A stretch of 64,000 nucleotides of DNA from positions 878,667 through 942,666 of the forward strand of contig NZ_OZ253465.1 in NCBI RefSeq assembly GCF_965261555.1. The letters are read 5' to 3'. Positions 11,204 through 64,000 of the stretch are shown piece by piece. The position numbers and the translations under genes are program-made. The notes beneath the pieces are model-generated. The model was given only the letters and a program-made list of their open reading frames with translations, was not told where the DNA came from and searched no databases. This stretch comes from Candidatus Palauibacter sp. (GTDB taxonomy: Bacteria > Gemmatimonadota > Gemmatimonadetes > Palauibacterales > Palauibacteraceae). Within the stretch, counting starts at the first letter, position 1. Every line of letters begins with the position of its first letter.

Positions 11204-11240
11204 CGGTTCTTCCTTTTTTACCTTCGACCGAGGCTGCCCC

Positions 11241-14672: not shown

Positions 14673-14691
14673 GTGTCTTCCTTTCAGCGCG

Positions 14692-19310: not shown

Positions 19311-19374
19311 TCTCCTGCATCTGATCGCGACCAGACCTATCTTCGGGCGGTAGATCGGATGTGTCGATAGCCCG
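19311..19374. repeat. Conserved non-coding block, copy B
   Basis: Same 64-nt architecture as copy A. Exactly 1260 bp downstream of copy A. Lies in the 5' region of the membrane-protein gene. Confidence 0.7.
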
Positions 19375-19423
19375 CAGCCCATTGAGCAGCCGGCTGCGGG
19401 AGCATGGAATTCAGGAGAGCGCG

Positions 19424-47749: not shown

Positions 47750-47914
47750 ATGCCGGAATGTCCTGTATGCGGCGCGGAACCGACGATTTCGGACGACCCC
47801 GTCGAGGGCGAGTTGCTCGAATGTGAGGATTGCGGAGTCGAACTCGAGATCCTCGCCCTTGACCCCATCACCCTTGGAGAGGCGCCGGACGCGGAGGAGG
47901 ACTGGGGCGAATGA
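47750..47914 (+). CDS. lysW: Amino-group carrier protein LysW/ArgW (absent from the supplied ORF track because it is <60 aa)
   Basis: [54 protein letters not shown]. Two CxxC zinc-ribbon pairs and the hallmark C-terminal EDWGE. Stop overlaps the lysX ATG (ATGA). An alternative in-frame ATG lies at 47741. Confidence 0.75.
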
Positions 47915-48759
47915 GAGTCGGCTTTCTTCATTCGCTCATCCGCAAGGACGAGAAGCTGCTGATCGCGGAGTTGCGCGGGCGCGGCGACGTCGAACTGGTG
48001 TTTCTGGACGACCGCAAGCTCGCGTTCGACTTCCGGAACGTCCCGGACGTCGACGTCGTCCTCGAGCGCTGCATCAACCATTCGCGGGCCATGCACGCGT
48101 TGCGGCTGTTCGAGGGGGCCGGTCTCGATTGCGTGAACCGCTACGAGGTGTCGCGCCGCTGCGGGGACAAGATCCTCACCGCGGCATCGCTCCAGGAATG
48201 CGGTGTGCCGCAGCCTGAGGTCAGGGTCGCGTTCACCGAGGAGTCCGCGCTCAAGGCCATCGAGGAACTCGGCTATCCCGTGGTCCTCAAGCCCGCGGTC
48301 GGCTCCTGGGGCCGCCTTCTGTCGAGGATCAACGACCGGCACGCGGCGGAGACGGTCCTCGAACACAAGGCGATCCTGGGCAGCTATCATCACTCGATCT
48401 TCTTCGTGCAGAAGTACGTCGAGAAACGCGGGCGCGACATCCGCGCGTTCGTCGTCGGCGACGACTGCGTGGCGGCCATCTACCGGTCGTCCGAGCACTG
48501 GATCACGAATACGGCACGCGGCGGAACGGCCTCGAACTGTCCGGTGACGAGCGAGATTGGAGAGCTGTCGCTGCGCGCGGCGGCCGCCATGGGCGGGGGC
48601 GTGGTCGCGGTGGATCTGCTCGAGAGCGGCGGCGAACTGCTGGTCAACGAGGTGAACTACACGATGGAGTTCCGGAACAGCATCGAGGCGACGGGCGTGA
48701 ACATTCCGGAGAGGATCGTGTCCTACGTGCTCTCGCCGGACCGGGCGGCGGACCGATGA
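47911..48759 (+). CDS. lysX: ATP-grasp ligase LysX/ArgX (RimK family) that loads substrate onto LysW
   Basis: RimK-like ATP-grasp. Stop overlaps the lysY ATG (ATGA). Confidence 0.8.
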
Positions 48760-49778
48760 TCCGCGCGTCGATCGCGGGCGGCTCGGGCTACGCCGGTGGG
48801 GAACTGTTGAGGCTCCTGCTCGGCCATCCCGACGTCGAGGTGCGGCAGATCACATCGGAGCGCTTCGCCGGGCGGTTCGCGCGCCGGGTCCATCCCAACC
48901 TGCGCGGCGTCACGCGACTGCGCTTCAGCGCGCTCGAGGAGCTGTCGGAGTGCGACGTGCTCTTCCTCTGTCTCCCGCACGGGGAGTCGTCCCGCCGCAT
49001 CGGCGAGTTCCGGTCTCTGGCGGGGCGGATCGTCGACCTGGGCGCGGACTTCCGGCTCGAGGACGGCGCCGACTATGAGCGCTTCTACGGCCGGCCGCAC
49101 CCTCGGCCGGAGCTCCTGGGATCGTTCGTGTACGGGATCGCGGAGGTGAACCGCGAGGCGCTGGCGGCCGCGGAGCTCGTCGCGTGCGCGGGCTGCAACG
49201 CGACGGCCTCCATCCTCGGGCTCCTGCCGCTGTACCGGGAGGGGGTCGCGGACTCGGTCGTGATCGAGGTGAAGGTGGGATCGAGCGAGGCCGGGAACCG
49301 CGCCAGCGAGGGCAGCCACCACCCGGAGCGCAGCGGCGCCATGCGGTCGTATCGGCCGACGGGCCACCGCCACGCGGCCGAGATCGCGGCGGTGCTCGGC
49401 GGCGACGTGCATTTCTCCGCGACGGCGGTCGAGATGGTGCGCGGCGTCCTCGCCACCTGTCACGTGTTCCTGAACCGGGAGCTGGATGAGAAGGCGCTGT
49501 GGAAGATCTATCGGAGCGCGTACGCCGACGAACCGTTCGTGCGCATCGTCAAGGAGCGGAGCGGCATCCACCGCTATCCCGACCCCAACCTCCTGGCGGG
49601 CGCGAACTACTGTGACGTGGGGTTCGAGCGCGATCCGCTCTCGAACCGGGTCGTCGTCCTGAGCGCGATCGACAATCTCATGAAGGGAGCGGCGGGACAG
49701 GCGGTGCAGGCGTTCAACGTGATGCACGGGTTGCCGGAGGCGCGGGGGCTCGAGTTCCCCGGGCTGCATCCGGCCTGA
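48756..49778 (+). CDS. lysY: LysY/ArgC-type N-acetyl-gamma-glutamyl-phosphate reductase family protein
   Basis: [17 protein letters not shown] Rossmann N-terminus. Catalytic Cys region [14 protein letters not shown]. ArgC fold. Confidence 0.8.
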
Positions 49779-49803
49779 CCGCGACACGCGGAGCTGAATC
49801 CTC

Positions 49804-50460
49804 GTGTGCCGCATCCTCTGCGTCCGCAGCGACGAGCCCTTCGACATGGAGCCGCACCTCGCCGCCTTCGCGCAGCTCGCCCGAGAGAGTCCCGAGTATC
49901 AGGGCGACGGGTGGGGGTGCGCCTGGATCGATGCCGACGGGTCCGACGGGTGGCGCGTCTACCGCAACATCTCGCCGGTGTGGGAGGACGCCGCGGCGCC
50001 GCCCGGGCGCACGAGGCTTCTGCTCGCGCACGCGAGGAGCGCGTATCGCGGAGAAGGGATACGGGTCGAGAACAACATGCCGTTCTTCGACGGGGAACGC
50101 GCGTTCATCTTCAACGGGGAGCTGCACGGAGTGCGGATCAAGGAACGGGGGCGGATCGGCGCGGAGAAGGTGTTCAACTTCGTCAAGCGCTTCGATGATG
50201 GAGACATGGGCCGTGCGCTGGAGCGAGGACTCGATGCGATCGAGAAGCGTACCCGTTACGTGCGGGCGATGAATCTGATCATCGCCGATGCATCGCGCCG
50301 GGTCCACTTCGCGACCCGATTCAGCGAGGATCCGGACTACTTCCGGATGCATGCCGCCCACCGGGACGGTGTGCGGATCCTGTGCTCGGCGCCCTATCCG
50401 GCTCCGGACGGGCGGGGGGCGTGGACGCCGGTGGCCAACGGCGCCATCGGGACGTTCTGA
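49804..50460 (+). CDS. Class-II glutamine-amidotransferase-like Ntn hydrolase (EgtC/YafJ type) embedded in the LysW cluster
   Basis: N-terminal MCRILCV (Cys2 nucleophile after Met removal). ...GDGWGCAW...RSAYRGEG...NNMPFFDGERAFIFNGEL... aligns with EgtC/YafJ-type gamma-glutamyl amidohydrolases. Confidence 0.65.
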   Translation: MCRILCVRSDEPFDMEPHLAAFAQLARESPEYQGDGWGCAWIDADGSDGWRVYRNISPVWEDAAAPPGRTRLLLAHARSAYRGEGIRVENNMPFFDGERAFIFNGELHGVRIKERGRIGAEKVFNFVKRFDDGDMGRALERGLDAIEKRTRYVRAMNLIIADASRRVHFATRFSEDPDYFRMHAAHRDGVRILCSAPYPAPDGRGAWTPVANGAIGTF

Positions 50461-50463
50461 TCG

Positions 50464-51276
50464 ATGCGACGCGAACCCGACGGGCTGCTTCTCGTCAAGA
50501 TCGGCGGCGGAGCATCCATCAATCTGGACGGGATCGCTCGCGACCTGGCGGACTTGTCCGGTCCGCTCGTCATCGTGCACGGCGCGAACGCGCTGCGCGA
50601 TTCCCTGGCCCGGAGGCTCGGGGTCGAGAAGCGCATCCTCACGTCCGTGTCCGGACACGAGAGCGTACGTTCCGACCGCGACCTGATCGACGTGATGCTC
50701 ATGGCCTACGCGGGCCTGCGAAACAAGCGCATCGTGGAACTGCTGCAGGGTCGGGGCGTGAACGCGGTCGGGCTCACCGGGCTCGACGGCGCGCTCGTGC
50801 GCGGCCGCCGCAACCGGGGAATCCGGGTGAGAGAGGGCGGCAAGACGCTGATCAAGCGGGACCTGTCCGGGAAACCCGTGGAGGTGAACCACAAGCTGAT
50901 GGCGTTGCTCCTCGACGGTGGTTTCACGCCGGTGGTGACCGTTCCGCTGATCGACGAACACAACGTGGCGATCAACTCGGAGAACGATGACGTCGTGACG
51001 CTGCTGAGCGACGAACTGCGAGCAGACTGCGTGATCCAGTTGATCGAGGCGCCCGGTTTCCTCGAGGACCCTGACGATCCGGGGTCGGTCGTCGCACGGC
51101 TCGCGCGCGCGGAGCTTGCGCGTCGGGAGGGCGAGGTCGCCGGGCGCATGAAGCGGAAGCTGCTCGCCCTGAGGCGACTCGTGGAATCCGGCACGACGCG
51201 CGTGGTGATCGCGGACGGGCGCGTCGAACGCCCGATCTCGGAGGCGCTGGCCGGACGGGGCACGGTCATCGGATGA
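50464..51276 (+). CDS. lysZ: LysZ/ArgB-type amino-acid kinase (acetylglutamate-kinase family)
   Basis: LLVKIGGGASINLDGIARDLADL...VIVHGANA... amino acid kinase fold. Stop overlaps the lysJ ATG (ATGA). Confidence 0.8.
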   Translation: MRREPDGLLLVKIGGGASINLDGIARDLADLSGPLVIVHGANALRDSLARRLGVEKRILTSVSGHESVRSDRDLIDVMLMAYAGLRNKRIVELLQGRGVNAVGLTGLDGALVRGRRNRGIRVREGGKTLIKRDLSGKPVEVNHKLMALLLDGGFTPVVTVPLIDEHNVAINSENDDVVTLLSDELRADCVIQLIEAPGFLEDPDDPGSVVARLARAELARREGEVAGRMKRKLLALRRLVESGTTRVVIADGRVERPISEALAGRGTVIG

Positions 51277-52427
51277 ACGTGCGCGAGACCGAACGGGAGT
51301 ACGCGCTCGAGGTGTTCCCGAAGCGCGACATCGCGGTCGTGCGGGGCGAGGGCGCATGCGTGTGGGACGACGAGGGTCGCCGCTACATCGATTGCGTGGG
51401 CGGGATCGGCGTGGCGAGCATCGGCCACGCCAACCCGGCCGTCGCCGAGGCGCTGGCGGAACAGGCTCGGGTGCTCGTGTCCTGTCCGGGGATCTTCTAC
51501 AACGATGTCCGGGCGCGGTTGCTGGCCGAACTCGTCTCGATCGCGCCGGCGGGGCTCACGCGCGCCTTCCTCTGCAACTCCGGGGCGGAGGCGGTGGAGG
51601 CGGCGATCAAGTTCGCGCGGCTTGCGACCGGACGGGCGGGGGTCGTGTCCGCGATGCGCGGCTTCCACGGGCGAACGATGGGAGCGCTGAGCGCGACGTA
51701 TAAAAGGGAGTACCGGGAGCCGTTCGAGCCGCTCGTGCCGGGGTTCTCGTTCGTGCCGTTCAACCACGTCGAGAAGCTGCGCGCGGCCGTGGGCGACGAC
51801 ACGGCGGCGGTCATCATCGAACCGGTGCAGGGAGAGGGCGGGGTGCGGCCGGCCAGCCCGGACTATCTGTCGGCGGCGCGCCGCATCTGCGACGAGGCCG
51901 GTGCGGTCCTCGTGTTCGACGAGATCCAGACGGGCTTCTGTCGCACCGGCCGCATGTTCGCCTGCGATCGCTACGGCGTTGCGCCGGACGTTCTCTGCCT
52001 CGCGAAGGCGATCGCGGGCGGCGTGCCACTGGGAGCGGTCCTGGCGCATGAACGGCTGCAGCCGCCGCCCGGGCGGCACGGCACGACTTTCGGCGGCAAT
52101 CCGCTCGCCTGCGCCGCCGCCCTGGCCGCGATCCGCTTCATGCGGGATGAGCGGCTCGACGAGCGGGCGGAGGCGCTGGGCGCCCGCTTCAGCGAGCGTT
52201 TCGCCCGGCGGCGGCCGGGTCGCGTGCGCGCCGTGCGGCAGGTCGGCCTCATGATCGGCGTCGAACTCCGCGAGCGCTGCCGACCCTACCTGGGAGCTCT
52301 CGCGGAGCGGGGCGTCCTCGCCCTCCCGGCCGGCACCACGGTCATCCGGCTGCTGCCGCCGCTCGTGATCACCGAAGCGCAGATCGACGAGGTGGCGGAT
52401 ACGCTGACGGAAGTACTGGCCGACTGA
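51273..52427 (+). CDS. lysJ: LysJ/ArgD-type class-III aminotransferase
   Basis: PLP-dependent acetylornithine-aminotransferase pattern ...DCVGGIGVASIGHANP...FLCNSGAEAVEAAIKFAR...VFDEIQTGFCRTGRMFA...LAKAIAGGVPLGAV... Confidence 0.8.
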   Translation: MNVRETEREYALEVFPKRDIAVVRGEGACVWDDEGRRYIDCVGGIGVASIGHANPAVAEALAEQARVLVSCPGIFYNDVRARLLAELVSIAPAGLTRAFLCNSGAEAVEAAIKFARLATGRAGVVSAMRGFHGRTMGALSATYKREYREPFEPLVPGFSFVPFNHVEKLRAAVGDDTAAVIIEPVQGEGGVRPASPDYLSAARRICDEAGAVLVFDEIQTGFCRTGRMFACDRYGVAPDVLCLAKAIAGGVPLGAVLAHERLQPPPGRHGTTFGGNPLACAAALAAIRFMRDERLDERAEALGARFSERFARRRPGRVRAVRQVGLMIGVELRERCRPYLGALAERGVLALPAGTTVIRLLPPLVITEAQIDEVADTLTEVLAD

Positions 52428-52713: not shown

Positions 52714-55320
52714 TTACGGGGTCGCTAGACGAACCACAGCTGTCGTGCGTTCCGCAGTGTCCGGGGGAAACGTAATGCGTACGGTCGCGGGGTTGGCGAG
52801 GGCAGTCGTTGCGGCGCCCTCCACGACGTCAGGTTCGACTGTGGCGCCGAAGATTCCGAGCTCGTAGCTCCGACCCGCTAGCCCCTCCACCTCGAGAATC
52901 CAGCCACCGGGATCCGCGGTGAAGTCGAGGATGCGCAGGCCGCTGCTCCCTTGACCGGGCTCAAGGTCGATCCGGGGCGGCGCGATCGCGAGTCCACCAT
53001 TCCATGTCACGACGATTTCCGCGCGATCGCCCGCAGGGCCGGCCTCGCCGAGCGTCATCTCCACCGTTCCATCCTCGGTGACTTCGGTGGCTACGCCGTT
53101 CACGGTGATGGAGACGTCACGCGCGCCCGCCGGCACGTCGGGTACGAGGCCGAATGTCAGCGCAGGCCCCCTGGTCGTGAGCGTCGTCCGCTGCTCCCCG
53201 CCTTCCTCCGTCCACCGTTGTCGGATCTCCACGTCCGTCGTCGTCTCCCCGGCTCGGAGCCGTCTCACCGTCACGGCCGGCCAGTCCGGCGGGAGTTGCG
53301 GGGCGAGGCGCACGCGGTCCAGCGGCGCATCGGGTTCCCAGCCGATGACGCCGCGCACTAACGGTGTCACCAGGGCCGAGGTCGCGAAGAACTGGTGGGG
53401 GACGGTCTGATCGAGGGGCTCGTAGAACGTTCCGGACAGCAACTCCGGGTGTCGTCCCAGGCTCCAGTCGAAGGTCATCTGCTTCACCGCGTCCATGAGA
53501 TGGAAGCCGGCCCACGGACGCCGATACCGGTACTGGGCCCACGACACGTATCCCGTCACGAAGGGCCATACCGTTCCCATGTTGTACTGGAGGGGGTGAT
53601 AAAGTTCGCTCTCCGTGGAGAGCATGTGCGCGCCCCAGTCCGACGAGATCCGGTCGCTCGCGAGGTGGGCGAGGGTCGCCCGTGCGCGCGCCTCGTCGAA
53701 CAGGCCGAACGCCGCCGCCGTGGCAGGCCACACGGTGAGGTTGTCGTTGGTTCCGCCATCGGCGAGGATCCCGAAGGCATGGTGTCCCGCGTCGTCCAGC
53801 CAGTACGCGTCGTTCAGGGTCGCCCGCGCGCGGGGAGCGAGCTCCCGCGCCCGGCCCGCGATCCCCGCGTCGCCCATGCGTTCGGCCAACGCCATCGTCC
53901 CTTCAAGCGCCGCCACCCAGATCCCCGCCAGGTAGATGTCCTGGTGGAGCGCGGCCCCGAGGCCGCCGACCTCGACCGCCGCGAGCCCACCCACGGTGTT
54001 CTCGATGATCCCGTCCCCGTCCGTTTCGGCGGTGAGGCACCACGCCCAGGCGCGCCGGTACGCCGGCCACAGTTCCCGCAGGAGGTCGTCGTCGCCGCTC
54101 GCCCGCCAGTACTCGTAAAGGGCGACCATCCAGTAGGGCGTCGTGTCGGCGTGGTAGTAGGCGTACGGGTACACGTCGAACCACGGGATGCGCGCGGCCG
54201 CCTGAGAGATTTCGTGCGTGATCTTGCCGTCCTCGCGCTGGTAGGTCGCGAGAAAGGCGAGTTCCTCCGCCACCAGTTCCCACTGCCCGAGCGCCTCCAT
54301 GGCGAACATGGTCTGCGCCGCGTCGCCGCCGAAGAACCAGCCGAAGCCGGGACGGGTTCCGTTGCGGGAATGGCCCCACCCGGCGACGAACCCGCAGCCG
54401 AGGTCGGGGTTGCAGACGCGCTGCTCCTCCAGGTTGATCTTCGCCCACTCGAGGGCGAGGTCGAGCCGCGGATCCGGCGATTCGATGGAGACGGTGGAGG
54501 CGAGCACCGAGTCGGCCCATGCTCGCTTCGCGTCGTAGAGCGAGCGCGCTTCGGCGATCAGCCGTTCGTAGCTGGCGAAGACCTCCTCGCGGGGCGTGGT
54601 TCCGCCCGCCACCGCGATCGGGATGAATTCCCGCCGCGCGCGCTCCGGGTCGACCGGGATCACCATGGTGCGCGGCGCCTCGCCCAGTTGGTGCGCCGGG
54701 TGTTCCACGGAGTTCACGGCCCACGGAGAGCCGACGACGGCGTTCCTCTCCTGCAGGCTCTCGGAGAGCACGAAGACGCGACGGGCGGCGTCCCAGTAGG
54801 CGTACTGCCCCCCGATCGAACCCGGCCACATGTAGTTCAGCACGGGCTCGAACTCCGCGATGATCTCGAGCGGTTCCGGGCTGTCCACATCGAGCAGGAG
54901 CAGAAGGCCGGGGAGGTCGGCCGGCGCGAGGATGTGCTGGCGCACCCGGAAGGCGGCGTGGCTGTAGGTGATCGTCGTGAGTTCGGGCCGAACCTGCACG
55001 GTGCGCGCGACCTCGTCTCCCGGAATCGGCGTCCCGTAGGCCGGCGTCGAGAAGCCGAGCCGGAAACGGTTCCCGACCTTGAGGGGATGGACCCACAGTT
55101 CCGCTTCGCCCGTCTCGAGCCCCAGCCACGCGGACCGGGGCCCGGTGACGCCGAGATACTCGCCGGGACGCACGGGTCCCGCGAGTTCGATCGGCGAAGG
55201 CGCGATCTCGAAACGCGGAACCCCGGCTGCGGACTGGCCGGAGCCGTTCGCGGGCAGGCCCGCGGCCACCGCGACGAAGAGCGCAGGAAGCGCGACGCGC
55301 GAGTTACTTTCGAGAGCCAT
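52714..55320 (-). CDS. Secreted (alpha/alpha)6-barrel glycoside hydrolase, amylo-alpha-1,6-glucosidase/GDE_C-like
   Basis: Signal peptide. N-terminal beta-sandwich. Central six-hairpin region (...GCGFVAGWGHSRNGTRPGFGWFFGGDAAQTMFAMEALGQWE...GKITHEISQ...YWMVALYEYWRASGD...). C-terminal beta domains. Confidence 0.55.
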   Translation of the reverse strand: MALESNSRVALPALFVAVAAGLPANGSGQSAAGVPRFEIAPSPIELAGPVRPGEYLGVTGPRSAWLGLETGEAELWVHPLKVGNRFRLGFSTPAYGTPIPGDEVARTVQVRPELTTITYSHAAFRVRQHILAPADLPGLLLLLDVDSPEPLEIIAEFEPVLNYMWPGSIGGQYAYWDAARRVFVLSESLQERNAVVGSPWAVNSVEHPAHQLGEAPRTMVIPVDPERARREFIPIAVAGGTTPREEVFASYERLIAEARSLYDAKRAWADSVLASTVSIESPDPRLDLALEWAKINLEEQRVCNPDLGCGFVAGWGHSRNGTRPGFGWFFGGDAAQTMFAMEALGQWELVAEELAFLATYQREDGKITHEISQAAARIPWFDVYPYAYYHADTTPYWMVALYEYWRASGDDDLLRELWPAYRRAWAWCLTAETDGDGIIENTVGGLAAVEVGGLGAALHQDIYLAGIWVAALEGTMALAERMGDAGIAGRARELAPRARATLNDAYWLDDAGHHAFGILADGGTNDNLTVWPATAAAFGLFDEARARATLAHLASDRISSDWGAHMLSTESELYHPLQYNMGTVWPFVTGYVSWAQYRYRRPWAGFHLMDAVKQMTFDWSLGRHPELLSGTFYEPLDQTVPHQFFATSALVTPLVRGVIGWEPDAPLDRVRLAPQLPPDWPAVTVRRLRAGETTTDVEIRQRWTEEGGEQRTTLTTRGPALTFGLVPDVPAGARDVSITVNGVATEVTEDGTVEMTLGEAGPAGDRAEIVVTWNGGLAIAPPRIDLEPGQGSSGLRILDFTADPGGWILEVEGLAGRSYELGIFGATVEPDVVEGAATTALANPATVRITFPPDTAERTTAVVRLATP

Positions 55321-55396
55321 CGTCCCTCCGGTCGTCTCGGATCGGTGCCCTAAACCCTGGTTGACTCGCCGGCATCACGGTAGCCAAGTTCGCCAC

Positions 55397-56434
55397 ATGA
55401 CGACCAGAAGCAATCGAACGTCGACGTACAGCGCTGCGCTGCCGCCGTTTCCCGAAGGCTGGTATTTCATCGGAAAGCGCGCGTCCATCGAGCGCGCGAA
55501 GCTCATCGAGAAGACGTGGATGGGCGAGGAGATCGTCGCCTGGGCCGACGACGAGGGCCGCATCTGCGTGGCGGACGCCTTCTGTCCGCACCTGGGCTCG
55601 CACATGGGACCCGCCGCGGGCGGCCTCGTGCGCGACGGCTGTCTCGTGTGCCCCTTTCACGGGTTCGAATTCGATACCGCCGGCCAGTGCGTGGCCACGC
55701 CCAATGCCCCGCCCCCGAAAGCGGCGAGGTTGAAGCTCTACGAGACGCGGGAGATCCTCGGCATGATCTTCGCCTGGTGGGGGAGCGGCGGGAGACCGCC
55801 GCAGTGGCACCTGCCCGATGAGCCACCCACGGGCGGTGAGTGGTCCGGATTGCGATCCACGACCATGCGCTTCCGCGGCCACCCCCAGGAGACCGCCGAA
55901 AACTCCGTTGATGTGGAGCACCTGGGCTACACGCACGGCTACGACGATGTGGTGCCGACCGACTTTTCGGTCGATGGAGCCTACCTGAAGAGTTGCTTCG
56001 ACTTCAAGAGCGTTCGCCGGATCGCGGGTCTGGCGGATATCCGCTCCGAGGTCTCGGCCGTCACACACGTCCATGGACTCGGCTATTCCTTCGTTGAAAT
56101 CCACGAGACGGCGGTCGGCATAAGGTCGCGCATGTGGGTGCTTTCGACACCGGTCGACGGCGAGTCGGTGGATCTGACGCTGGTCAGCCAGGTGCATGAG
56201 GTCCGCAAACCCCGACGGCGCATCGCGGGTCTGGCCTTCCTGCCCGTGGCGCTGCGCCACAGGCTGCTGAATCTCTTCGTCATACGGGAGGAGAGACGGT
56301 TCGTCCTGCAGGACGTGGTCATTTGGGAAAGGAAGCGCTACCGGTCCCCGCCCAGGCTGTGCCGAGCCGACGGCCCCATCGGAAAGTACCGCAGATACTG
56401 CCGGCAGTTCTACCCGGACCAGGGGGGACGCTAG
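55397..56434 (+). CDS. Rieske [2Fe-2S] non-haem-iron oxygenase (KshA/SdmA/Neverland-type alpha subunit)
   Basis: Rieske ligands CPHLGSHM...CPFHGF. Mononuclear iron motif ENSVDVEHLGYTHG (D-x2-H-x4-H). About 345 aa. Convergent with the P450 gene and overlapping its stop by 4 nt. Confidence 0.75.
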   Translation: MTTRSNRTSTYSAALPPFPEGWYFIGKRASIERAKLIEKTWMGEEIVAWADDEGRICVADAFCPHLGSHMGPAAGGLVRDGCLVCPFHGFEFDTAGQCVATPNAPPPKAARLKLYETREILGMIFAWWGSGGRPPQWHLPDEPPTGGEWSGLRSTTMRFRGHPQETAENSVDVEHLGYTHGYDDVVPTDFSVDGAYLKSCFDFKSVRRIAGLADIRSEVSAVTHVHGLGYSFVEIHETAVGIRSRMWVLSTPVDGESVDLTLVSQVHEVRKPRRRIAGLAFLPVALRHRLLNLFVIREERRFVLQDVVIWERKRYRSPPRLCRADGPIGKYRRYCRQFYPDQGGR

Positions 56435-58476
56435 ACCGGTATCTCGCGGTGTTGCTCGGCGATGTGGAACATGAGCTTCTTGCTCGGCTTCATCGACGGA
56501 AGCGGGTCGAACTTGAACTTGTAGCCCGCCGGCACCTCGAGCCTGAAGTAGTGCGCGATCATCAGCACGTTGACCGCCAGTTGCAGTTCCATCCACCGGA
56601 AACCGAGACAGGTATGCGTGCCCAGCCCATACGGCGCGTACCCCGGACTCTTATGCTCGTCGCGTGGCGGCAGGTAGCGGTCGATGTCGAACGAGAACGG
56701 GTCCGGGAATACATCTTTCATGTAATGGGAGGCCGTAGAGGCGATGAAAATGTTGCTCCCCACCGGCAGTTCGTAGCCCTCGACCACACACGAGTTCATC
56801 ACGGTCCGCATGGACCCCGGGACGACCGGATACATGCGGAGGAATTCCATCAGGAATCGGTGGGTCACATCGATCGACGACCCCGTGATGGCGTCGCCAT
56901 CCGGGTCGCCATCCCCGAACAGCGCATCGGCTTCGCTCCGGATTCGCTCGTAGAGTTCCGGCTGCGTCGCCATGGCGTACACCGCAAAGCTGAGCGCGTC
57001 GCCGAGGTACACGCTGGCGACCAGCGCCGCCGAGAGCGCGAAACGCAGATTCGATTGCGGCACGAACTGCGGGTCGCTCCCGTGCAGGCTGAGCCAGTCG
57101 TCCGCCAGGTCCCGCGGGCATCCGGCTCGCTGTTCGGTGGTATGCACGCTCTGGATCCGCTTCAGCAACGTGTCGACGGTGGCTGCGCGGCGTTTCATGC
57201 CCGGCGTCTTCAGCATGAAGCCGGGCATGGCCTTCATGATCTTGACGGTGAGCGCGCGCTCCTTGTACACCGACAGATCGTCGAAGATGTCCTGTGAATC
57301 GACGCCGACGGACAGAGGCGAAATCTGCGCGTTGGCCATTCGGCGGCAGAGCGACCTCGCCTGGTAGGTGTCGCCGACCTTCCAGTCCGCCATGAAGTTG
57401 CGGGCATACTCGTAGAGAACGTCCGCCTGGTCCGCGAGTCTCCCGCGGGAATACGCCGGCGAGATGGCCTTGCGAAGCCGGAAATGGTCGGCGCCATCCA
57501 GCGACGGCAACACGCCGTTCGCGCCGTAGACTTTCTCGAAGTCGGCGAAATAGTCCTTGGTTCTCACGTAGATCCGGCTGTGCCGGTGTGCCCAGCGATT
57601 CGTCTCCGGGCCGACGAGGAAGAGCATGGGTTCCTTGAACGGCGGGCGGAGCTCGAACACCGGCCCGTACTCCTTCGCAAGTTCCGCGATGATCGCGGGA
57701 AGGTTGCCGGAGCGCAGATGCGGGTTGAGCAGCACGTGACGCAGCTTGACCTTCGGAATGTGCTTGGTGAGGGCCGAACGGCGAAGCAGGGGGCCGGCGA
57801 GGTTGTGTACGACGGCGGCGGCGATGGACCGGCCGATCAGATCCATCCGGCAGATGAACTCGATGCGTTCCTCCGCCTCCTCATCGAGTTGGAAGATGTA
57901 GCGAAAGACATCGCACGTATTGACGAGGCAGATGATGATGACGTCTCTCGGATCCGGAATCTCGTCGGAGAAGATGACCCTCCCGATTCGCGTCCTGGTG
58001 AACTGACGAGCGGTGCCTTCCTCGGCGGCGCCATCCGGTTCGGACTCCCAGGCGCCGCGAGCCAGCGTCCAGAAGTCGCCATCGTGGTGTTCCAGGATGT
58101 TCAATCCGACCAGGCGCTCCAGCGTCCGGTCGATGATGGACTCCGCCCGCGGGGCGAGCCGTTCGATCCAGTACCGGGCGGTCCGTCGATGGGGTGCTTC
58201 CGCGATTTCCTTTAGAAAGGGGTCCAGGACGGGGTCGCCCGTTTCGGTGGGGTCCACGAGGAAAAGGGATTCCATGTCCGTGTCGATGCGCGACAAAAGG
58301 GAGAGTTCCGCGAGCACGGCGCCGGCGACGGCGCAGTTCAACTCCCAGCCGGGGACCTGGTGGAAGTAGCCGCTCTCCTCGTTGAGGAGCATCAGGATCA
58401 ACTCCTCGGGCAGGCTCAGCGCTTGATTGGAAACACTCCCTGTAGGGACGACCATAGGGCTCGACCGCCCGTCCAT
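56431..58476 (-). CDS. Cytochrome P450 fused to an N-terminal GPP34/GOLPH3-like domain
   Basis: C-terminal ~470 aa carry the ExxR K-helix (EFLRMYP), PERF-like PDPFSFDIDRY and haem-thiolate loop YGLGTHTCLG. The I-helix (VYLGDALSF) lacks the usual acid-Thr pair. N-terminal ~200 aa match the GPP34 family (LSLPEELILMLLNEESGYFHQVPGWELNCAVAGAVLAELSLLSRI...). ATG at 58476. An alternative GTG lies at 58503. Confidence 0.75.
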   Translation of the reverse strand: MDGRSSPMVVPTGSVSNQALSLPEELILMLLNEESGYFHQVPGWELNCAVAGAVLAELSLLSRIDTDMESLFLVDPTETGDPVLDPFLKEIAEAPHRRTARYWIERLAPRAESIIDRTLERLVGLNILEHHDGDFWTLARGAWESEPDGAAEEGTARQFTRTRIGRVIFSDEIPDPRDVIIICLVNTCDVFRYIFQLDEEAEERIEFICRMDLIGRSIAAAVVHNLAGPLLRRSALTKHIPKVKLRHVLLNPHLRSGNLPAIIAELAKEYGPVFELRPPFKEPMLFLVGPETNRWAHRHSRIYVRTKDYFADFEKVYGANGVLPSLDGADHFRLRKAISPAYSRGRLADQADVLYEYARNFMADWKVGDTYQARSLCRRMANAQISPLSVGVDSQDIFDDLSVYKERALTVKIMKAMPGFMLKTPGMKRRAATVDTLLKRIQSVHTTEQRAGCPRDLADDWLSLHGSDPQFVPQSNLRFALSAALVASVYLGDALSFAVYAMATQPELYERIRSEADALFGDGDPDGDAITGSSIDVTHRFLMEFLRMYPVVPGSMRTVMNSCVVEGYELPVGSNIFIASTASHYMKDVFPDPFSFDIDRYLPPRDEHKSPGYAPYGLGTHTCLGFRWMELQLAVNVLMIAHYFRLEVPAGYKFKFDPLPSMKPSKKLMFHIAEQHREIPV

Positions 58477-58530
58477 GTAATTTTGAGAAGCACCGGACGG
58501 CACGGCTTGTTCCGGTTGCCGTCGCCATTG

Positions 58531-59061
58531 TCAAGGATGGCGTGACTCGAACATCCAGGTCAAGCCAACGTGCAGGGCCGTTGCATCCGCTTCGGACTCC
58601 GAGGCCCCGCCGGCGCGGAGGGCAGCGGCACGTCCCGCATCCGCACCCTCGATCCAGGAGTGCGAGTAGTCGAAACCGAAGTTCACGCCGCCTCGATACC
58701 AATTCTGCCTGAGTCCGACATCGACCTCGCCGAAGCCGGGTAGCGGCCGCGCGACTTCGTCGTCGGCCGTACCGAAATGACCCCACAGCGCCACGAACGT
58801 GGGTTGCAGGCTGTCACTCAAGTTCTTGGATGCCGCCAGTGCGAGAGTGGTGCCATCTCCCGCATCCCCACCCTCGAACCACGCATACGTATAGCCACCG
58901 AAGGAGCCTGCAAAAAACGACCCGGCGCCCGTGGCGTCGGTTGCGCGCGGTTCACGGAACACCCTGGAAGACTCTGATCCGTCGTGCGGAAGCGGATGCC
59001 GGCACCGGGGGCGAGGACGGTGCTCGCCAACTCGGCCCCCAGGCCAGCGAGTAAAGCGCAC
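58531..59061 (-). pseudogene. Probable remnant of an outer-membrane beta-barrel protein (C-terminal ~120 aa only, no signal peptide)
   Basis: ...GYTYAWFEGGDAGDGTTLALAASKNLSDSLQPTFVALWGHFG...VDVGLRQNWYRGGVNFGFDYSHSWIEG...ATALHVGLTWMFE has alternating amphipathic strands and a terminal W.F as in OMP barrels. The N-terminal part is Arg-rich and lacks a signal sequence. Confidence 0.3.
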
Positions 59062-59260
59062 TCGGTCGATGACCGATGCTGCTTCAGGTGACGGTCGAGC
59101 CGCTCTGCGAGCTTGGCGGCTGGCGGAACGCCAAGACGGTGCTCAACTGCTACCAGAGGCCCGACGAGGGACAGCGGGGGGCATCCGATTGGTGGAGGCG
59201 GTCTCGGCCCGGACGGCAACGGCGACTGGCAGGCCGTGGCGGGGCTTTTGCCACGGGCTG

Positions 59261-60295
59261 CTAGGGTTTGCGAGCCAGGAAACAGTACAGCGGCGTAAAG
59301 ATACCCGTCTTGCCGCCCGCAACGTACGCCTCCGCGGTTCGATCGAGGAGCCGTGCGACTGCCGCCGAGCCATTCGGAAAGAACCGCAGTACCTCGGCCA
59401 GCTTCGATCCCGCGATGATCACCTTGCGGCCCCACGCAAGCCCGCACAAGGCGCTCCCCAACGTCCCGTGGCGACTCTCCATGGGTTGATACCAGGGCGT
59501 GGAGGGTCCTTCCCGAACCTCCCAGTCGCTCCCCTCGATGACCTGGAATCCCGCCCCTTCGAGCGCGTGATTCACTTCCCCGAAGGTGGCGATGTCGTGC
59601 AGCGCAATACCGCGCATGAGGTCCCGCTTGATGGTCCGGTGCCGTGCGTTCCGCGGATCGAACCGGTCCGTCAGACACATTTCCTGACCCCAGAACAGGG
59701 CACCCGGTTTCAGCACGCGGAAAATCTCGGCGAAGGCGCGTTGCTTGTCCTGCGCATGGCACGTTGACTCTATGGCGTAACCCGCGTCGAAGGTGTCGGC
59801 CTCGATGGCGCTCATGTCCGCGAAGCTGCACTTCCTGAAGTCGGTCATGTCCTCCAGCCCCGCCTCGGCGTTCAACTTCTTCGCCTCCGCCAGCTGGATC
59901 TCATTGATGTTGATTCCCGTGACCCTGACACCCGCCTCACGGACGACGCGGCGCATGGGGCCGCCGACTCCACAACCGACGTCGACCACCTTCATGCCCT
60001 GTTGAAGCTCCAACCGGGAGATCATCGCCCGCTGGTGCCGGACCTTGGACTCCTCCGGACTTTCGTCAGGCGTGAGGGGCGCGAAGTGCAGGGATTCACC
60101 CCAGCTCCACACCATGATGCCGTTGCAAAGCTCGTAGTAGTCCCTGACCGTTTCCTCGTGGTCGTAGCCGCCCTCGCCTCCGGCCCGCCCGACCCATCCA
60201 TCGAAGTGTCGCACGCGATGCGCCACGTCCGATCCCCGGTACGCTTCCGTCAGCGCTTTCGACAGTTCGCCCAGCCGCTTCGCGTGGCGCTTCAA
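59261..60295 (-). CDS. Sterol C-24 methyltransferase (Erg6/SMT1-type SAM-dependent methyltransferase with Sterol_MT_C domain)
   Basis: End-to-end similarity to Erg6. YYELCNGIMVWSWGESLHFAP (Erg6 [20 protein letters not shown]). SAM motif VVDVGCGVGGP. AGYAIESTCHA (AIEATCHAP). FRVLKPGALF (YKVLKPGGTF). TPWYQPM (IPWYYPL). C-terminal VAGGKTGIFTPLYCFLARKP (VAGGKSKLFTPMMLFVARKP). A TTG start at 60295 abuts the RND stop. An alternative TTG at 60355 would overlap it. Confidence 0.85.
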   Translation of the reverse strand: MKRHAKRLGELSKALTEAYRGSDVAHRVRHFDGWVGRAGGEGGYDHEETVRDYYELCNGIMVWSWGESLHFAPLTPDESPEESKVRHQRAMISRLELQQGMKVVDVGCGVGGPMRRVVREAGVRVTGININEIQLAEAKKLNAEAGLEDMTDFRKCSFADMSAIEADTFDAGYAIESTCHAQDKQRAFAEIFRVLKPGALFWGQEMCLTDRFDPRNARHRTIKRDLMRGIALHDIATFGEVNHALEGAGFQVIEGSDWEVREGPSTPWYQPMESRHGTLGSALCGLAWGRKVIIAGSKLAEVLRFFPNGSAAVARLLDRTAEAYVAGGKTGIFTPLYCFLARKP

Positions 60296-63200
60296 GCGGG
60301 CAACTCGCGTCGCTGCTCCGAGCGGCCGCGCGACCTTGCCCGCCGCGCCAGCCAACGCTGGTGGATCGAGGTCAGCGCCGGCACGAGGAACATCAGCAGG
60401 ACCGTGGTGAAGAGGATGCCGCAGCCGATCGAAGCGGAGAAGGGCACGAAGAACTGGGCCTGAATCGCGTCTTCGAGGATGAGGGGCGTGAAGCCGAGGA
60501 AGGTGGTCAGCGACGTCAGCATGATCGGGCGGAAACGCCCCTTGGCACCCTCGATGATCGCTTCTCGTGCCGGCAGGCCTTCCTCGAACTCCTGGTCGAT
60601 GAAGTCGATCATGACCAGGGAGTCGTTCACCACCACGCCGGCGAGGCCGAAGACCCCGATGAAGGACTCGGAGCTGAGTGCGACACCCAGGACCCAGTGG
60701 CCCAGAATCACCCCGATCAACCCGAACGGGATGATAGCCATAATGATGATCGGCTTGGTATACGAGCGCAGCGGAATCGCGAGCAGCGCGAAGATCATGA
60801 TCATGGCGATCCCGAAGCCGGGGCCCAGCGCATTCAGGGATTCCAGCTGCTGCTGCGGTTCACCTCCGAAGGTGTAGGTCAGTTCCGGGTCCTCGGCGAC
60901 GATCCCCGCGAGGATGTCGTCTTCCAGAATGCGGTTGGCGCGCCCGCCGGATATCACCTCCGGATCCACATCCGCAGTGACCCTGACGATGCGCTGGCCG
61001 TCCTGGCGATGGATGGCGGGCGGCGACATGCCCGAGCTCAGCGAAGCCACACGGCTCACCGGGACCTCGGCGCCGCCGGCCGTCCGAACCAGCGAACTTT
61101 CGATGTCGGTGATCGAGTTGCGCTGCTCCTCGGGCAGCCGCACGTACACCCGAACCTCTTCGCGGCCGCGCTGCACCCTTAGCGCCTCCGCGCCGAAGAA
61201 CGCGGCTCGCGTCTGCCAGGCGAGGTCGTCGAGGGTGAGACCGAGAGTTCGTGCCTCGGGTAGCAGGCCCAGCTGGATTTCCGGGATGCCGGGGGTGTGG
61301 TCGGAGCGTATGTCGTGGACGCCGCCCACTTCGCGGAGGCGATTGACGACCGTGGTTGCGACCCCGGGGAGCTGCCCCGGGTCCGGATGGGACAGTACGG
61401 CCTCCACGGGGTTGCCCAGGTCGTAGATCTGGCCGCTGATGGTGACCGCGCGCACATAGGGCAGGACACCCAGTTCCTCGCGCCACGCCTGCACGACTTC
61501 CGCGGTTGGAATCCGCCGGTGCTGCGCGTCCAGGAGCTTGAACGAGATGCTGGCGACATTGGGCTCCGGGTTCAACCTGAGGTTGGGACTGAGCCCCCCT
61601 CCATCGACCCGCGGCCGTTGACCGACCGTAATCGTTACCCCGGACAGCAGGGGCGGTGCATCGGCGGGCCTGTCTGCGGAGATCCGCTCGATGACCCGGT
61701 GGCCGGCCGCCTCCAACTCGCGCGCCACCTCGTAGGTTCGCTGGGCCGTCGTCCCGTCCGGCATCTCCAGGGTGGCCGTTGCGAAATCGCCTTCGACCTC
61801 CGTGGCAAAGGTGAACGGAACGATGCCCGCCGGCAGCAAGGCAAGGCACAGGACGAGCAGGGCGATTGCGGACGCGAGCGTCACTCCGGGTCGATCGGTC
61901 GCGAAACTCACGCCGCGGTGCAGGGGGCCCTGCACGAATCTGCCCAACTGCAGATCGACCTGAGCCTGAATCCGGGATACGAATCGCCCAAGGCGCGTTC
62001 GGGGCGCCCACTCCGGTCCGTGGAGGTGGTGAGAGAGGTGGTTGGGCAACACCAGCAGCGATTCGATCACCGAAATCACCAGCATCGCGATGACGATGGT
62101 CGGCAGCGCCTTCCAGATTTCTCCGATCCCTCCTGGAATGAAGAGCAGAGGAGAGAACGCGGCGATGGTGGTCAGCACTGCGAAGATGAGAGGCACTTTG
62201 ATTCGCCGGGCCCCGCGTATCGCCGCGACGACGCCCGGCGTGCCCCGCATTCGTTCCAGGTGGATGTACTCGGAGACGACGACCGCATCGTCCACCACGA
62301 TTCCGATGGCGAGCACGAACGAGAAGAGGGAGACCGCGTGGATGGCGAGGTCGAACGCCATCATCGCGGCCAGGGCACCGACGCCGGACACCCCGAGGCC
62401 GACGGCTACCCAGAAGGCAAGCCGGAGTTCGAGAAACAGTCCCAAGGCCAACAGCACCAGCAACAGCCCGAGAAGACCATTCTTCATGAGGATGCCGGCG
62501 CGCTCCTCGAAGGCATCGGATGCGTCGTTCAAGATGGTGACGCCCACGCCGTCCGGGAGTGACGGGGCCACCTCGTCGGCGACGTACTGCCGAACGGCGC
62601 CCGCCACATTCATCACCTTCTCGCCCTCGGCCCTCGATACCTCGACGAAGACGGCCGGCAGACCGTCGTGCCGGACGATCAGGTCCAGGTCCTGGAAGCC
62701 GTCGCGCACCTCGGCGATGTCGCCCAGTCGTACCACCGTGCCGTCCCCGCGGCTGAGCAGTACGATCTCCTCGAAGTCCTGCTGATCGTAGCTCTGTCCC
62801 AGGGTGCGCACCCTCACCTGGGACTGCTCGGTGTCGATGCTGCCGGCGGACAGATCCAGCGAACTGCGGCGAATTGTGTTTGCGATATCGGGGAGCGTGA
62901 GTCCAAGCGCTCTGAGCCGCTGCAGCGGCACTTCGATCGAGATCTCATAGTTGCGGATGCCGCTCGTCTCTACCTGCGAGACGGAAGGCAGCGCGGCGAG
63001 TTCATCCTCGATCCGGTAGGCAAGCTCCTTCAACGTTCGCTCGGGGGCATCGCCGTAGACGGCCAGGCGCATGATGCTCTCGGCGTTGGTCAGCTCCCTG
63101 ATCTGGGGCCGCTCGGCTTCTCCCGGGAACGTCTGGATTCGGCCGACCGCCGCTTCCACCTCGGCCACGGCATCGTTCATCTCCGTGCCCGACCGCATTT

Positions 63201-63513
63201 CCACCCTGACCGACGCCATGCCCGGGGCCGCCACGGACTTCACCGCCTTCACGTTGCCCAGCCCTTCGACCTCGTCCTCGATCTTGGCGACGATGGACTC
63301 CTCGACCTCCTCGGGGGTGGCGCCCGGATAGGCGACGGAGACCTCGACCTGGTTGAAGGGCACGGTGGGCCAGGCTTCCAGCTCGAGCCCGAAGAACGAG
63401 GCCACGCCCGCGACGAGAATGCCGACCATCAGCAGATTGGCGGCCACGCTGTTGCTCGCCATGTAGGCGATGGGGCCGCCGGGTTCGCCGTGATTCCTTC
63501 CGTTCGAAGTCAT
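60292..63513 (-). CDS. RND efflux transporter permease (AcrB/HAE1-type, 12 TM, two large periplasmic loops)
   Basis: 1073 aa. Canonical AcrB-like organisation and motifs (...SIVAKIEDEVEGL..., ...AIGIVVDDAVVVSE..., ...GLAGVVVNDSLVMIDF...). Confidence 0.85.
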   Translation of the reverse strand: MTSNGRNHGEPGGPIAYMASNSVAANLLMVGILVAGVASFFGLELEAWPTVPFNQVEVSVAYPGATPEEVEESIVAKIEDEVEGLGNVKAVKSVAAPGMASVRVEMRSGTEMNDAVAEVEAAVGRIQTFPGEAERPQIRELTNAESIMRLAVYGDAPERTLKELAYRIEDELAALPSVSQVETSGIRNYEISIEVPLQRLRALGLTLPDIANTIRRSSLDLSAGSIDTEQSQVRVRTLGQSYDQQDFEEIVLLSRGDGTVVRLGDIAEVRDGFQDLDLIVRHDGLPAVFVEVSRAEGEKVMNVAGAVRQYVADEVAPSLPDGVGVTILNDASDAFEERAGILMKNGLLGLLLVLLALGLFLELRLAFWVAVGLGVSGVGALAAMMAFDLAIHAVSLFSFVLAIGIVVDDAVVVSEYIHLERMRGTPGVVAAIRGARRIKVPLIFAVLTTIAAFSPLLFIPGGIGEIWKALPTIVIAMLVISVIESLLVLPNHLSHHLHGPEWAPRTRLGRFVSRIQAQVDLQLGRFVQGPLHRGVSFATDRPGVTLASAIALLVLCLALLPAGIVPFTFATEVEGDFATATLEMPDGTTAQRTYEVARELEAAGHRVIERISADRPADAPPLLSGVTITVGQRPRVDGGGLSPNLRLNPEPNVASISFKLLDAQHRRIPTAEVVQAWREELGVLPYVRAVTISGQIYDLGNPVEAVLSHPDPGQLPGVATTVVNRLREVGGVHDIRSDHTPGIPEIQLGLLPEARTLGLTLDDLAWQTRAAFFGAEALRVQRGREEVRVYVRLPEEQRNSITDIESSLVRTAGGAEVPVSRVASLSSGMSPPAIHRQDGQRIVRVTADVDPEVISGGRANRILEDDILAGIVAEDPELTYTFGGEPQQQLESLNALGPGFGIAMIMIFALLAIPLRSYTKPIIIMAIIPFGLIGVILGHWVLGVALSSESFIGVFGLAGVVVNDSLVMIDFIDQEFEEGLPAREAIIEGAKGRFRPIMLTSLTTFLGFTPLILEDAIQAQFFVPFSASIGCGILFTTVLLMFLVPALTSIHQRWLARRARSRGRSEQRRELPA

Positions 63514-63650: not shown

Positions 63651-64000
63651 TCACCGCGCCGGATCGGTTCCGGTCTGAACGCGCATGCCTTCGGCGGCGA
63701 ATTGAATGCCACCGGTGATCACGGCCTGGCCGTTCTCGAGGGAACCGGTCACAAATACCTCGTCGTCAGCGCGCTGCAGCACGCGGACCGGAATGATGCT
63801 CACGACACCCGCTTCGCTCACCGCCCAGACTTCGTTGCCCGTTTGTAGCGCCGCGCGTGGTACGCGAAAATAATCCTCCGGTGAAACACCGTCGATTTCC
63901 ACTTCCACGAACTTGCCGACCAGCAGGGGAGGGCTGCCGGACGCGCTGGATGCGCTCGCGGAGACGCCCGCCGCAAAGGGGTCGGACACGCGCACGATCA
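63651..64000 (-). CDS. RND periplasmic adaptor (membrane fusion protein), C-terminal part; gene continues beyond the window
   Basis: C-terminal beta-barrel/MP domain of HlyD-family adaptors (...GKFVEVEIDG...VPRAALQTGNEVWAVSEAGVVSIIPVRVLQRADDEVFVTGSL.NGQAVITGG...). Start lies past position 64000. Confidence 0.6.
   Translation of the reverse strand, partial: IVRVSDPFAAGVSASASSASGSPPLLVGKFVEVEIDGVSPEDYFRVPRAALQTGNEVWAVSEAGVVSIIPVRVLQRADDEVFVTGSLENGQAVITGGIQFAAEGMRVQTGTDPAR

Follow-up and report, generated by a model that had tools for sequence, protein, structure and literature searches.

Kelly et al. (2022) reported horizontally transferred ERG24-CYP51-LSS gene clusters in sponge symbionts from ten phyla, Gemmatimonadetes among them, and Brown et al. 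(2023) showed that sterol C-24 methyltransferases (SMTs) encoded in such symbiont clusters methylate desmosterol and 24-methylenecholesterol in vitro, with products up to 24-isopropyl. A second body of work describes GPP34-domain proteins of sponge symbionts: in 656 of 663 long forms the GPP34 domain is joined to a cytochrome P450, an architecture named GPP34_L that is reported to be monophyletic, confined to sponge symbionts and spread over many phyla, and that is proposed to bind phosphatidylinositol 4-phosphate (PI4P) and to permit escape from phagocytosis (Ferreira et al. 2025, Microbiome, PMC11706023). The words sterol and methyltransferase are absent from that paper, whose flanking-gene analysis covered the short form; the main texts of Kelly et al. 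and Brown et al. mention neither Rieske proteins nor GPP34, with P450 appearing once in the former and never in the latter, and full-text literature searches found no paper linking the symbiont sterol clusters with the GPP34 symbiosis factor. Here we analyze a 64-kb stretch of Candidatus Palauibacter DNA (contig NZ_OZ253465.1; "the window" hereafter) in which the gene for a Rieske non-haem-iron oxygenase converges on that for a GPP34-P450 fusion, beside genes for an SMT and an AcrB-type RND transporter. We judge it on balance probable that the pair supplies the oxygenases at the core of a cassette for sterol tailoring and transport that has spread by horizontal transfer.

The arrangement of the two oxygenase genes had been described in an earlier reading of the DNA alone (the original prediction): convergent Rieske and P450 genes at 55397-58503, a 4-nt overlap of their stop codons, and an SMT about 800 bp away. 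All of this was borne out. Read directly from the sequence, the Rieske gene starts with an ATG at 55397 and stops with TAG at 56432-56434, and the P450 stop is the reverse complement of CTA at 56431-56433, so the 4-nt tail-to-tail overlap arises because both stops share a CTAG palindrome. The SMT, recognized by its Sterol_MT_C match, is 757 bp from the P450 start. What the original prediction missed was the N-terminal domain of roughly 250 aa of the P450 open reading frame (ORF), which is a GPP34/GOLPH3 domain, the RND pump as a member of the unit, and the spread of the whole across phyla.

Species-representative genomes, one genome per species, were scanned for the fusion. It was encoded at 551 loci, of which the best 80 were compared in detail; partner genes were counted in the 63 of these with full 10-kb flanks. 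Across the 80 loci the fusion is 69-75% identical to the window protein, and 94% identical in a complete Ca. Palauibacter chromosome. The hosts belong to the Gemmatimonadota (including Longimicrobiales), Latescibacterota, Nitrospirales, Dehalococcoidia and other Chloroflexota, Binatia, Opitutales, Thermodesulfobacteriota, Alpha- and Gammaproteobacteria, and Rhodothermaceae, and the gene set is found in more than 10 bacterial phyla. Within 10 kb of the fusion, 52 of the 63 loci encode a KshA-like Rieske protein (≥50% identity), 40 an SMT, 33 a 454-aa flavoprotein of the amine-oxidase family, and five to seven a squalene epoxidase-oxidosqualene cyclase (OSC) fusion, CYP51 and ERG24; two loci have none of these partners, and most have an RND or MMPL transporter. 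Unbiased clustering of neighboring ORFs at the 80 loci ranked Rieske first, followed by SMT, the flavoprotein, and then transporters: an 827-aa MMPL protein (36 loci), AcrB-type RND (24), periplasmic adaptor (MFP; 15), MFS transporter (11), LppX-like lipoprotein (11) and outer-membrane factor (9). The window SMT is 58-86% identical to the SMTs that adjoin the fusion at 47 of the 80 loci, and the window RND protein is 70-86% identical to the RND proteins encoded beside it at 25. RND is replaced in Chloroflexota by MMPL-type transporters with matches to the sterol-sensing domain, and the MMPL proteins of loci L022 and L097 (in the latter beside the pair) match both Patched and the sterol-sensing domain.

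Chance adjacency of the Rieske and P450 genes was rejected on the strength of the 52 linked loci together with reciprocal look-ups from three Rieske homologues, each of which had the fusion as its neighbor. The first, from Acidobacteria, has the Rieske gene on one strand and, following it on the other, genes for the flavoprotein, the fusion, an SMT and an RND protein, which is the window layout with an inserted flavoprotein; in the second, the Rieske and fusion genes are codirectional and lie beside a 3β-hydroxysteroid dehydrogenase (3-beta-HSD)-like gene, a Rieske/VanA_C gene and two SMTs; in the third, they are divergent, with an MMPL transporter alongside. Because gene order and orientation vary between phyla (Rieske-P450 gaps run from 3 to 5531 bp, and the convergent arrangement, although the commonest, accounts for 41 of 62), the linkage evidently survives rearrangement. 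We estimate that one or two SMT genes placed at random in a genome of 2-6 Mb would fall within 10 kb of the fusion at fewer than one of 63 loci. A scan of metagenomes for the fusion returned seven loci; the experimentally tested Aplysina aerophoba scaffold JGIcombinedJ30088_10000835 was not among them.

At some loci the cassette adjoins de novo sterol synthesis genes. In Nitrospirales, Binatia, Thermodesulfobacteriota and Opitutales, the pair lies beside genes for the squalene epoxidase-OSC fusion (which scores 725 bits with the oxidosqualene cyclase model), CYP51, ERG24 and SdmA-like proteins, and SdmB-like genes also adjoin the cassette at some loci. The squalene epoxidase and oxidosqualene cyclase of Nitrospira locus L004 form a single protein of 1156 aa (13995-17465), and the SMT of the same cluster is 75% identical to the window SMT (tblastn). 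For the A. aerophoba symbiont cluster, Brown et al. (2023) list ERG1 and ERG7 as matching one gene, report an sdmA that is 47% identical to MCA1016, and give in their Supplementary Data the order SMT, one gene, SMT, SMO-OSC fusion (squalene epoxidase and cyclase), ERG11, ERG24, sdmA, sdmB. Two Nitrospira loci, L015 and L004, show a matching order, with the fusion P450 directly ahead of the first SMT; by this matching gene order the window-type SMT may be likened to the tested propylating SMT. The cassette shares with the clusters of Kelly et al. and Brown et al. the kind of source (sponge-symbiont metagenome-assembled genomes), the range of phyla, horizontal transfer combined with purifying selection and, at some loci, the position of an SMT beside ERG24-CYP51-LSS; the window differs from them in that it has tailoring and transport genes but no cyclase core. 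The order Palauibacterales is most abundant in sponges and sediments, and its description does not mention sterols.

The flavoprotein, which is absent from the window, was seen at 37 of the 80 loci (for example L006, 12072-13436, L095 and L096) and is 75-90% identical across phyla. Its nearest solved relatives are LkcE (5e-28) and 2b9w (3e-11), the latter of which we take to be a Propionibacterium fatty-acid double-bond isomerase; the flavoprotein may isomerize, oxidize or reduce a double bond.

The Rieske protein matches the Pfam families Rieske (58.4 bits) and KshA_C (PF19298, 86.8 bits, model positions 2-207 of 207). The CxH...CxxH cluster and D-x2-H-x4-H site that had been predicted are both present and show no variation in an alignment of 36 homologues, the [2Fe-2S] ligands being C63-x-H65...C85-x-x-H88 and the iron motif D172-x2-H175-x4-H180 plus D306, with H175, H180 and D306 as iron ligands and D172 as the bridging residue. 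The iron-site residues align with the KshA motifs DNVVDMAHFFYIH and QDVEIW. By cluster, iron site and fold alike, the protein belongs to the KshA_C-type class that has no β subunit. Among solved structures, KshA ranks first in a sequence search (E = 1.4e-23), ahead of SxtT/GxtA (~1e-14), phthalate-type oxygenases (~1e-10) and aromatic-ring-hydroxylating dioxygenases (~1e-4); because KshA outranks the phthalate-type and aromatic-ring enzymes, the grouping with either that would have counted against the original prediction did not arise for the Rieske protein. KshA is also the best fold match (TM-score 0.71, at 23-24% identity) of an AlphaFold2 model with a predicted local distance difference test score (pLDDT) of 74 and a predicted TM-score (pTM) of 0.77. 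Relative to the homologue in the nearest genome, L008, the Rieske gene has a ratio of nonsynonymous to synonymous substitution rates (dN/dS) of 0.21.

The likeness to KshA (PDB 2zyl, 4qck and 4qdc), which extends to the Rieske plus KshA_C architecture, all metal ligands and the lack of a β subunit, raises the question of steroid catabolism, in which a KshA-type 9α-hydroxylase would open ring B and a CYP125/CYP142-like P450 would hydroxylate the side chain of sterols taken from the host. KshA being the closest solved relative in both sequence and fold speaks for this reading, which we nevertheless regard as very improbable. Orthology with KshA was rejected, since identity is only 23-24% and 443 representatives of a protein library clustered at 50% match the window protein better (E ≤ 1e-30, against 1e-23 for KshA). 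The ten of these representatives that were looked up carry no functional name, and matches on plasmids were to generic Rieske proteins at 29-34% identity. We detected no KshB reductase or steroid-catabolic gene in the window or among the conserved neighbors of the 80 loci; KstD, Hsa and β-oxidation genes are likewise missing from those conserved neighbors, and the partners that do occur are biosynthetic (SMT, OSC clusters). CYP125 and CYP142 are absent from the 42 PDB sequences that match the P450 at E ≤ 1e-10.

The original prediction had also likened the Rieske protein to SdmA, the bacterial sterol C-4 demethylase of Methylococcus capsulatus. The comparison with KshA stood, as described, and that with SdmA did not: although both are Rieske-type oxygenases encoded in the same kind of cluster, SdmA was rejected as an identity because the SdmA equivalog model NF052579 (cut-off 600 bits) scores 30.9 bits over model positions 18-139, which is the Rieske domain only. 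Seven ORFs in the cassette loci are SdmA-like candidates, and the three scanned gave 405-415 bits over NF052579 positions 4-347. At three Nitrospirales loci (L011, L025 and L053) such an SdmA-like gene accompanies the KshA-like Rieske gene at a distance of about 6 kb. No sdmB gene (3-beta-HSD-like reductase) was found in the window. Neverland/DAF-36 cholesterol 7-desaturases have a Rieske plus KshA_C-type architecture and act on an intact sterol rather than a 3-ketosteroid; set beside the window protein by description only, they would offer the most attractive functional analogy for the Rieske enzyme. An acidimicrobial relative of 645 aa, P0285 (38% identity), carries an N-terminal domain of about 290 aa before the Rieske/KshA_C part that matches no Pfam family, is hydrophobic and reads by inspection as multipass membrane; its cluster has 11 members, the most widespread of which is present on 88 contigs.

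The P450 ORF encodes 690 aa, but the protein probably starts at an ATG at 58455 (M17; 674 aa), because its homologues begin there and M17 is invariant. The GPP34 match (PF05719) scores 111.1 bits against a cut-off of 29.1 and covers model positions 1-198 of 201; a profile of the domain reaches human GOLPH3 at E = 4.6e-4 and yeast Vps74 at 0.014, and phmmer with the domain alone matched no solved structure. The p450 Pfam match scores 128.9 bits, and the residues of the ExxR motif (E553 and R556) and of the haem-binding FxxGxxxCxG loop (G626, G628, H630, C632 and G634) do not vary in 32 sequences. More than 2000 homologues of the fusion were found, and the best 120, which are 72-96% identical to the window protein, all have both domains. 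The I-helix, A496-S-V-Y-L-G-D502, lacks the acid-threonine pair of the usual (A/G)Gx(D/E)T(T/S) motif, a feature conserved in the 120 homologues, and Y499 and L500 stand where CYP51 has His and Thr. The missing pair suggests an unusual route of oxygen activation or a substrate that is already oxygenated. An AlphaFold2 model of the whole fusion was too poor for use (pLDDT 58.6, pTM 0.44). A Binatia genome (L024) encodes two GPP34-P450 paralogues, at 5029-7053 and 10043-12070, 3 kb apart within one cassette.

The best solved matches of the P450 are all weak: an uncharacterized P450 (7wzl, 2e-21), M. capsulatus CYP51 (1.5e-19), taxadiene 5α-hydroxylase (5.6e-19) and CYP102 (~1e-16). CYP51 was rejected, since identity to the CYP51 of locus L004 is 24% (C-terminal half) and GQHTS is replaced by SVYLG; the true CYP51 of that Nitrospira cluster (E = 8e-100, FAGQHTS I-helix) is a separate gene, lying 8 kb away from the fusion and Rieske genes. 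Of the classes that the original prediction had listed for the P450, CYP51, CYP125 and CYP142 fall away; with identity to CYP51 below the 40% that the naming convention for CYP families requires, the protein constitutes a family of its own, and homology alone assigns it to nothing closer.

These results separate the two parts of the function first proposed. The general idea of sterol tailoring gains from the SMT at 40 of 63 loci, the sterol-sensing transporters and the sterol clusters, but the specific suggestion of C-4 or C-14 demethylation does not hold. Such a role would fit the enzyme classes, a Rieske protein as in SdmA and a P450 as in CYP51. However, related clusters carry SdmA-like and CYP51 genes of their own, in some cases alongside the pair; neither window protein passes the test for its family; and in the A. 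aerophoba cluster it is to other genes that Brown et al. give the names sdmA, sdmB and ERG11. For the first two of these reasons, C-4 and C-14 demethylation by the pair is unlikely, and that the pair is itself the bacterial demethylation machinery is scarcely credible.

A different function was proposed by Ferreira et al. (2025), in whose account the GPP34 domain is a host-manipulation effector that binds host PI4P and allows escape from the phagosome, with the P450 and neighboring genes incidental or supporting. The GPP34 homology is genuine, the window protein has the GPP34_L two-domain architecture, the reported restriction of that architecture to sponge symbionts of many phyla accords with such a role, and horizontal spread would suit a symbiosis factor. 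Against it, inspection of the sequence finds no signal-peptide-like N-terminus on the fusion, and the ExxR motif and haem cysteine are kept under strong purifying selection (dN/dS of 0.15 against L008), so that the fusion looks like a working cytoplasmic enzyme in need of haem and electron donors; with the haem site intact and no signal peptide apparent, a cytoplasmic membrane-tethered enzyme fits better than a secreted effector. The residues that we take to be the PI4P contacts of human GOLPH3 (W81, R90, R171 and R174) align with V, V/A, E and I of the GPP34 domain, in an alignment that is itself of low confidence (accuracy 0.61). An effector role also leaves unexplained the tight linkage to Rieske, SMT, flavoprotein, RND/MMPL transporter and OSC-cluster genes, which points to metabolism. 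We therefore think an effector improbable, although the two accounts need not exclude each other if a sterol product acts on the host. One of the Nitrospirales isolates encoding the fusion is named Plut_88904 (L053), which suggests a coral (Porites lutea) source; if so, sponges are not the only setting in which the fusion occurs.

The cassette bears the marks of transfer between phyla. Median pairwise identities within and between phyla are 0.74 and 0.72 for the fusion P450, 0.80 and 0.79 for the flavoprotein, 0.76 and 0.70 for the SMT, 0.81 and 0.74 for the RND protein, and 0.69 and 0.58 for the Rieske protein; identities this high, with so weak a phylogenetic signal, indicate cross-phylum transfer under strong constraint. 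All genes compared with the closest genome, L008, are under purifying selection (dN/dS 0.15-0.23). Synonymous divergence (dS) from L008 jumps along the locus, from 0.10 in a glycosidase-like neighbor described below to 0.20 in the fusion P450, 0.35 in the Rieske gene and 0.82 in the RND gene, and L008 has neither the SMT nor the 757-bp spacer that separates it from the P450 gene in the window; for these reasons the SMT-RND block of the window has a history different from that of the oxygenase pair. The cassette is modular, and mosaic even between close relatives. The window RND protein is 72% identical to the pump of L008 (6766-9985) and 85-86% identical to pumps of Longimicrobiales/Gemmatimonadetes.

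Three observations suggest that the substrate of both enzymes is a lipid embedded in the membrane: GPP34 is joined to the P450 in the window and to a Rieske protein in other genomes, the 38%-identical Rieske relative has a membrane-like N-terminal domain, and the partner genes encode lipid pumps and a lipoprotein resembling lipid carriers. GPP34-Rieske fusions were reported from two symbiont genomes by Ferreira et al. (2025). In the sterol-tailoring cassette that we favor, the Rieske enzyme, with its [2Fe-2S] cluster and 2-His-1-carboxylate iron, would hydroxylate or desaturate the sterol, and the P450 would carry out a second oxidation, presumably by a noncanonical route of oxygen activation because its I-helix has no acid-threonine pair. 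The GPP34 domain would keep the P450 close to its lipid substrate by anchoring it to the membrane on the cytoplasmic side, rather than act as a secreted PI4P-binding effector. The adjoining SMT would alkylate C-24, an MFP-RND pump would carry the sterol across the envelope, in a direction that we infer, and electron donors would be encoded elsewhere. The window RND protein belongs to the cassette and is a putative sterol or lipid pump. A possible precedent for the pump is the BstABC sterol transport system of Methylococcus, which has an RND-family inner-membrane transporter encoded beside sterol enzymes; the window RND protein, likened to it by description only, resembles it in family and in position beside a sterol enzyme.

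Several observations weigh against a sterol function. We infer sterol as the substrate of both enzymes entirely from genomic context, and tethering by GPP34 from analogy. The KshA_C fold also serves nonsteroid substrates, for example saxitoxin (SxtT/GxtA), and sequence matches put the P450 at much the same distance from CYP51, from terpene hydroxylases and from fatty-acid hydroxylases. OSC, CYP51 and ERG24 were not found in the window, which is part of the genome only, and no ferredoxin, reductase or other electron-transfer protein is conserved nearby at the 80 loci. At 23 of the 63 loci, including the closest genome, L008, no SMT lies within 10 kb, and the RND-P450-Rieske core could for that reason act on some other hydrophobic substrate.

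The last point leads to the possibility of a unit for the uptake or efflux and oxidation of a compound that is hydrophobic but not a sterol (for example a toxin, a hopanoid, or a terpenoid of the sponge or a symbiont), serving detoxification or scavenging, with the SMT an occasional passenger. In Latescibacterota and the closest Palauibacter genome the RND, P450 and Rieske genes occur with no SMT, as would be expected of such a unit, saxitoxin hydroxylases are among the KshA_C-type enzymes, and NCBIfam matches the P450 best to terpene oxidases, although far under their cut-offs. It leaves unaccounted for the frequency of SMTs near the fusion and the de novo sterol genes at five to seven loci, the Patched and sterol-sensing-domain matches of the MMPL partners, and a locus where genes resembling sdmA and sdmB, together with two SMTs, directly adjoin the pair. 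We consider a nonsterol unit unlikely, and retain sterol tailoring and transport as the favored function.

A broader proposal, which we put forward only tentatively, is that GPP34-P450 fusions are membrane-tethered sterol oxygenases in a mobile island spanning more than 10 phyla, made up of the fusion, its dedicated Rieske enzyme, SMT, an isomerase- or oxidase-like flavoprotein and RND/MMPL pumps, and serving both to edit sterols and to exchange them with the sponge host. If this is true, bacteria contribute directly to the unconventional sterols of sponges, including the 24-alkylated ones that serve as the oldest animal biomarkers, and the conserved loss of the acid-threonine pair would suggest unusual chemistry on an oxygenated sterol. 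The finding that symbiont SMTs usually travel with two uncharacterized oxygenases and a lipid pump, at about 72% protein identity between phyla, bears on a long dispute about the origin of 24-isopropylcholestane and related steranes, in which early sponges and bacteria are the competing sources. It supplies a defined, testable gene set for symbiont sterol changes beyond methylation and for transfer of the product to the host, and an alternative, checkable function for GPP34-P450 proteins, recently highlighted as a hallmark of sponge symbiosis.

Table 1. Features of the cassette and of its surroundings in the window
Feature	Position	Strand	Basis or remark
KshA-like Rieske non-haem-iron oxygenase, 345 aa	55397-56434	+	Pfam Rieske + KshA_C
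CTAG palindrome holding both stop codons	56431-56434		Sequence read directly
GPP34-cytochrome P450 fusion (GPP34_L architecture), ORF of 690 aa	56431-58503	-	Pfam GPP34 + p450
P450 catalytic domain, aa 263-664	56512-57717	-	ExxR E553/R556, haem thiolate C632
GPP34/GOLPH3-like domain, ORF aa 31-231	57811-58413	-	PF05719, 198 of 201 positions
757-bp spacer between P450 and SMT	58504-59260		Holds 176-aa ORF
176-aa ORF in spacer, of doubtful reality	58531-59061	-	Failed GC3 filter
SMT homologue	59261-60355	-	Methyltransf_11 + Sterol_MT_C (55.9 bits)
AcrB-type RND inner-membrane transporter	60292-63513	-	ACR_tran, 532 bits
RND periplasmic adaptor (MFP), C-terminal part, cut by window end	63663-64000	-	Similarity to MFP of locus L052
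GH116-like protein, 868 aa	52714-55320	-	Weak GH116/DUF608 + MGH1-like glycosidase matches
Amino-acid biosynthesis-like cluster	47911-52427	+	LysX/RimK-type ATP-grasp and others
TMEM164-family protein, 234 aa	46970-47674	+	Match over whole length, E 7.7e-49
Region of unusual composition	20001-22000		G+C 0.73, AT skew -0.19
Long overlapping ORFs	19361-22128	both	Two scanned + strand ORFs without Pfam match
Gp49-like (HigB-type toxin) gene	135-500	+	Near window start

The window has a G+C content of about 68%, and its best protein matches are in Gemmatimonadota metagenome-assembled genomes, at 84-96% identity to 'Candidatus Palauibacter sp.' The MFP fragment at the window end (Table 1), which on its own matches no Pfam family, shares 67% identity, across 113 aa, with the MFP encoded next to the cassette RND gene of Latescibacterota locus L052. 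The ORF in the spacer between the P450 and SMT genes has no Pfam or NCBIfam match and no conserved counterpart among 87 related loci; search matches to the spacer fall only on the SMT C-terminus included in the query and on one short stretch upstream of the ORF. The spacer may be a recombination scar or hold a lineage-specific small gene. No terminator-like sites were found in 55200-60500, and no promoter-like sites and no Rfam match were found.

Elsewhere in the window we found no sterol genes, ferredoxin or reductase; the rest encodes peptidases, amidohydrolases, an amino-acid biosynthesis cluster of the LysX type and similar functions. The 868-aa GH116-like protein, which has a hydrophobic signal-like N-terminus, is encoded divergently from the Rieske gene across a 76-nt intergenic region, and homologues at 73-96% identity adjoin the cassette in five other Gemmatimonadota loci (L008, L016, L021, L031 and L036). 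Among GH116 enzymes are glucosylceramidases active on steryl glucosides as well, so the protein might conceivably be connected with sterol glycosides; plain lineage synteny is equally possible. Just upstream of the cassette, genes for a LysX/RimK-type ATP-grasp protein, a semialdehyde dehydrogenase, a class-II amidotransferase-like protein, an amino-acid kinase and a class-III aminotransferase resemble a LysW-type lysine/arginine biosynthesis cluster. Farther upstream lies a gene of the TMEM164 family, which is known mainly from eukaryotes. A 2-kb segment unusual in both G+C content and AT skew overlaps long ORFs on both strands, and a Gp49-like toxin gene of the HigB type is found near the start of the window.

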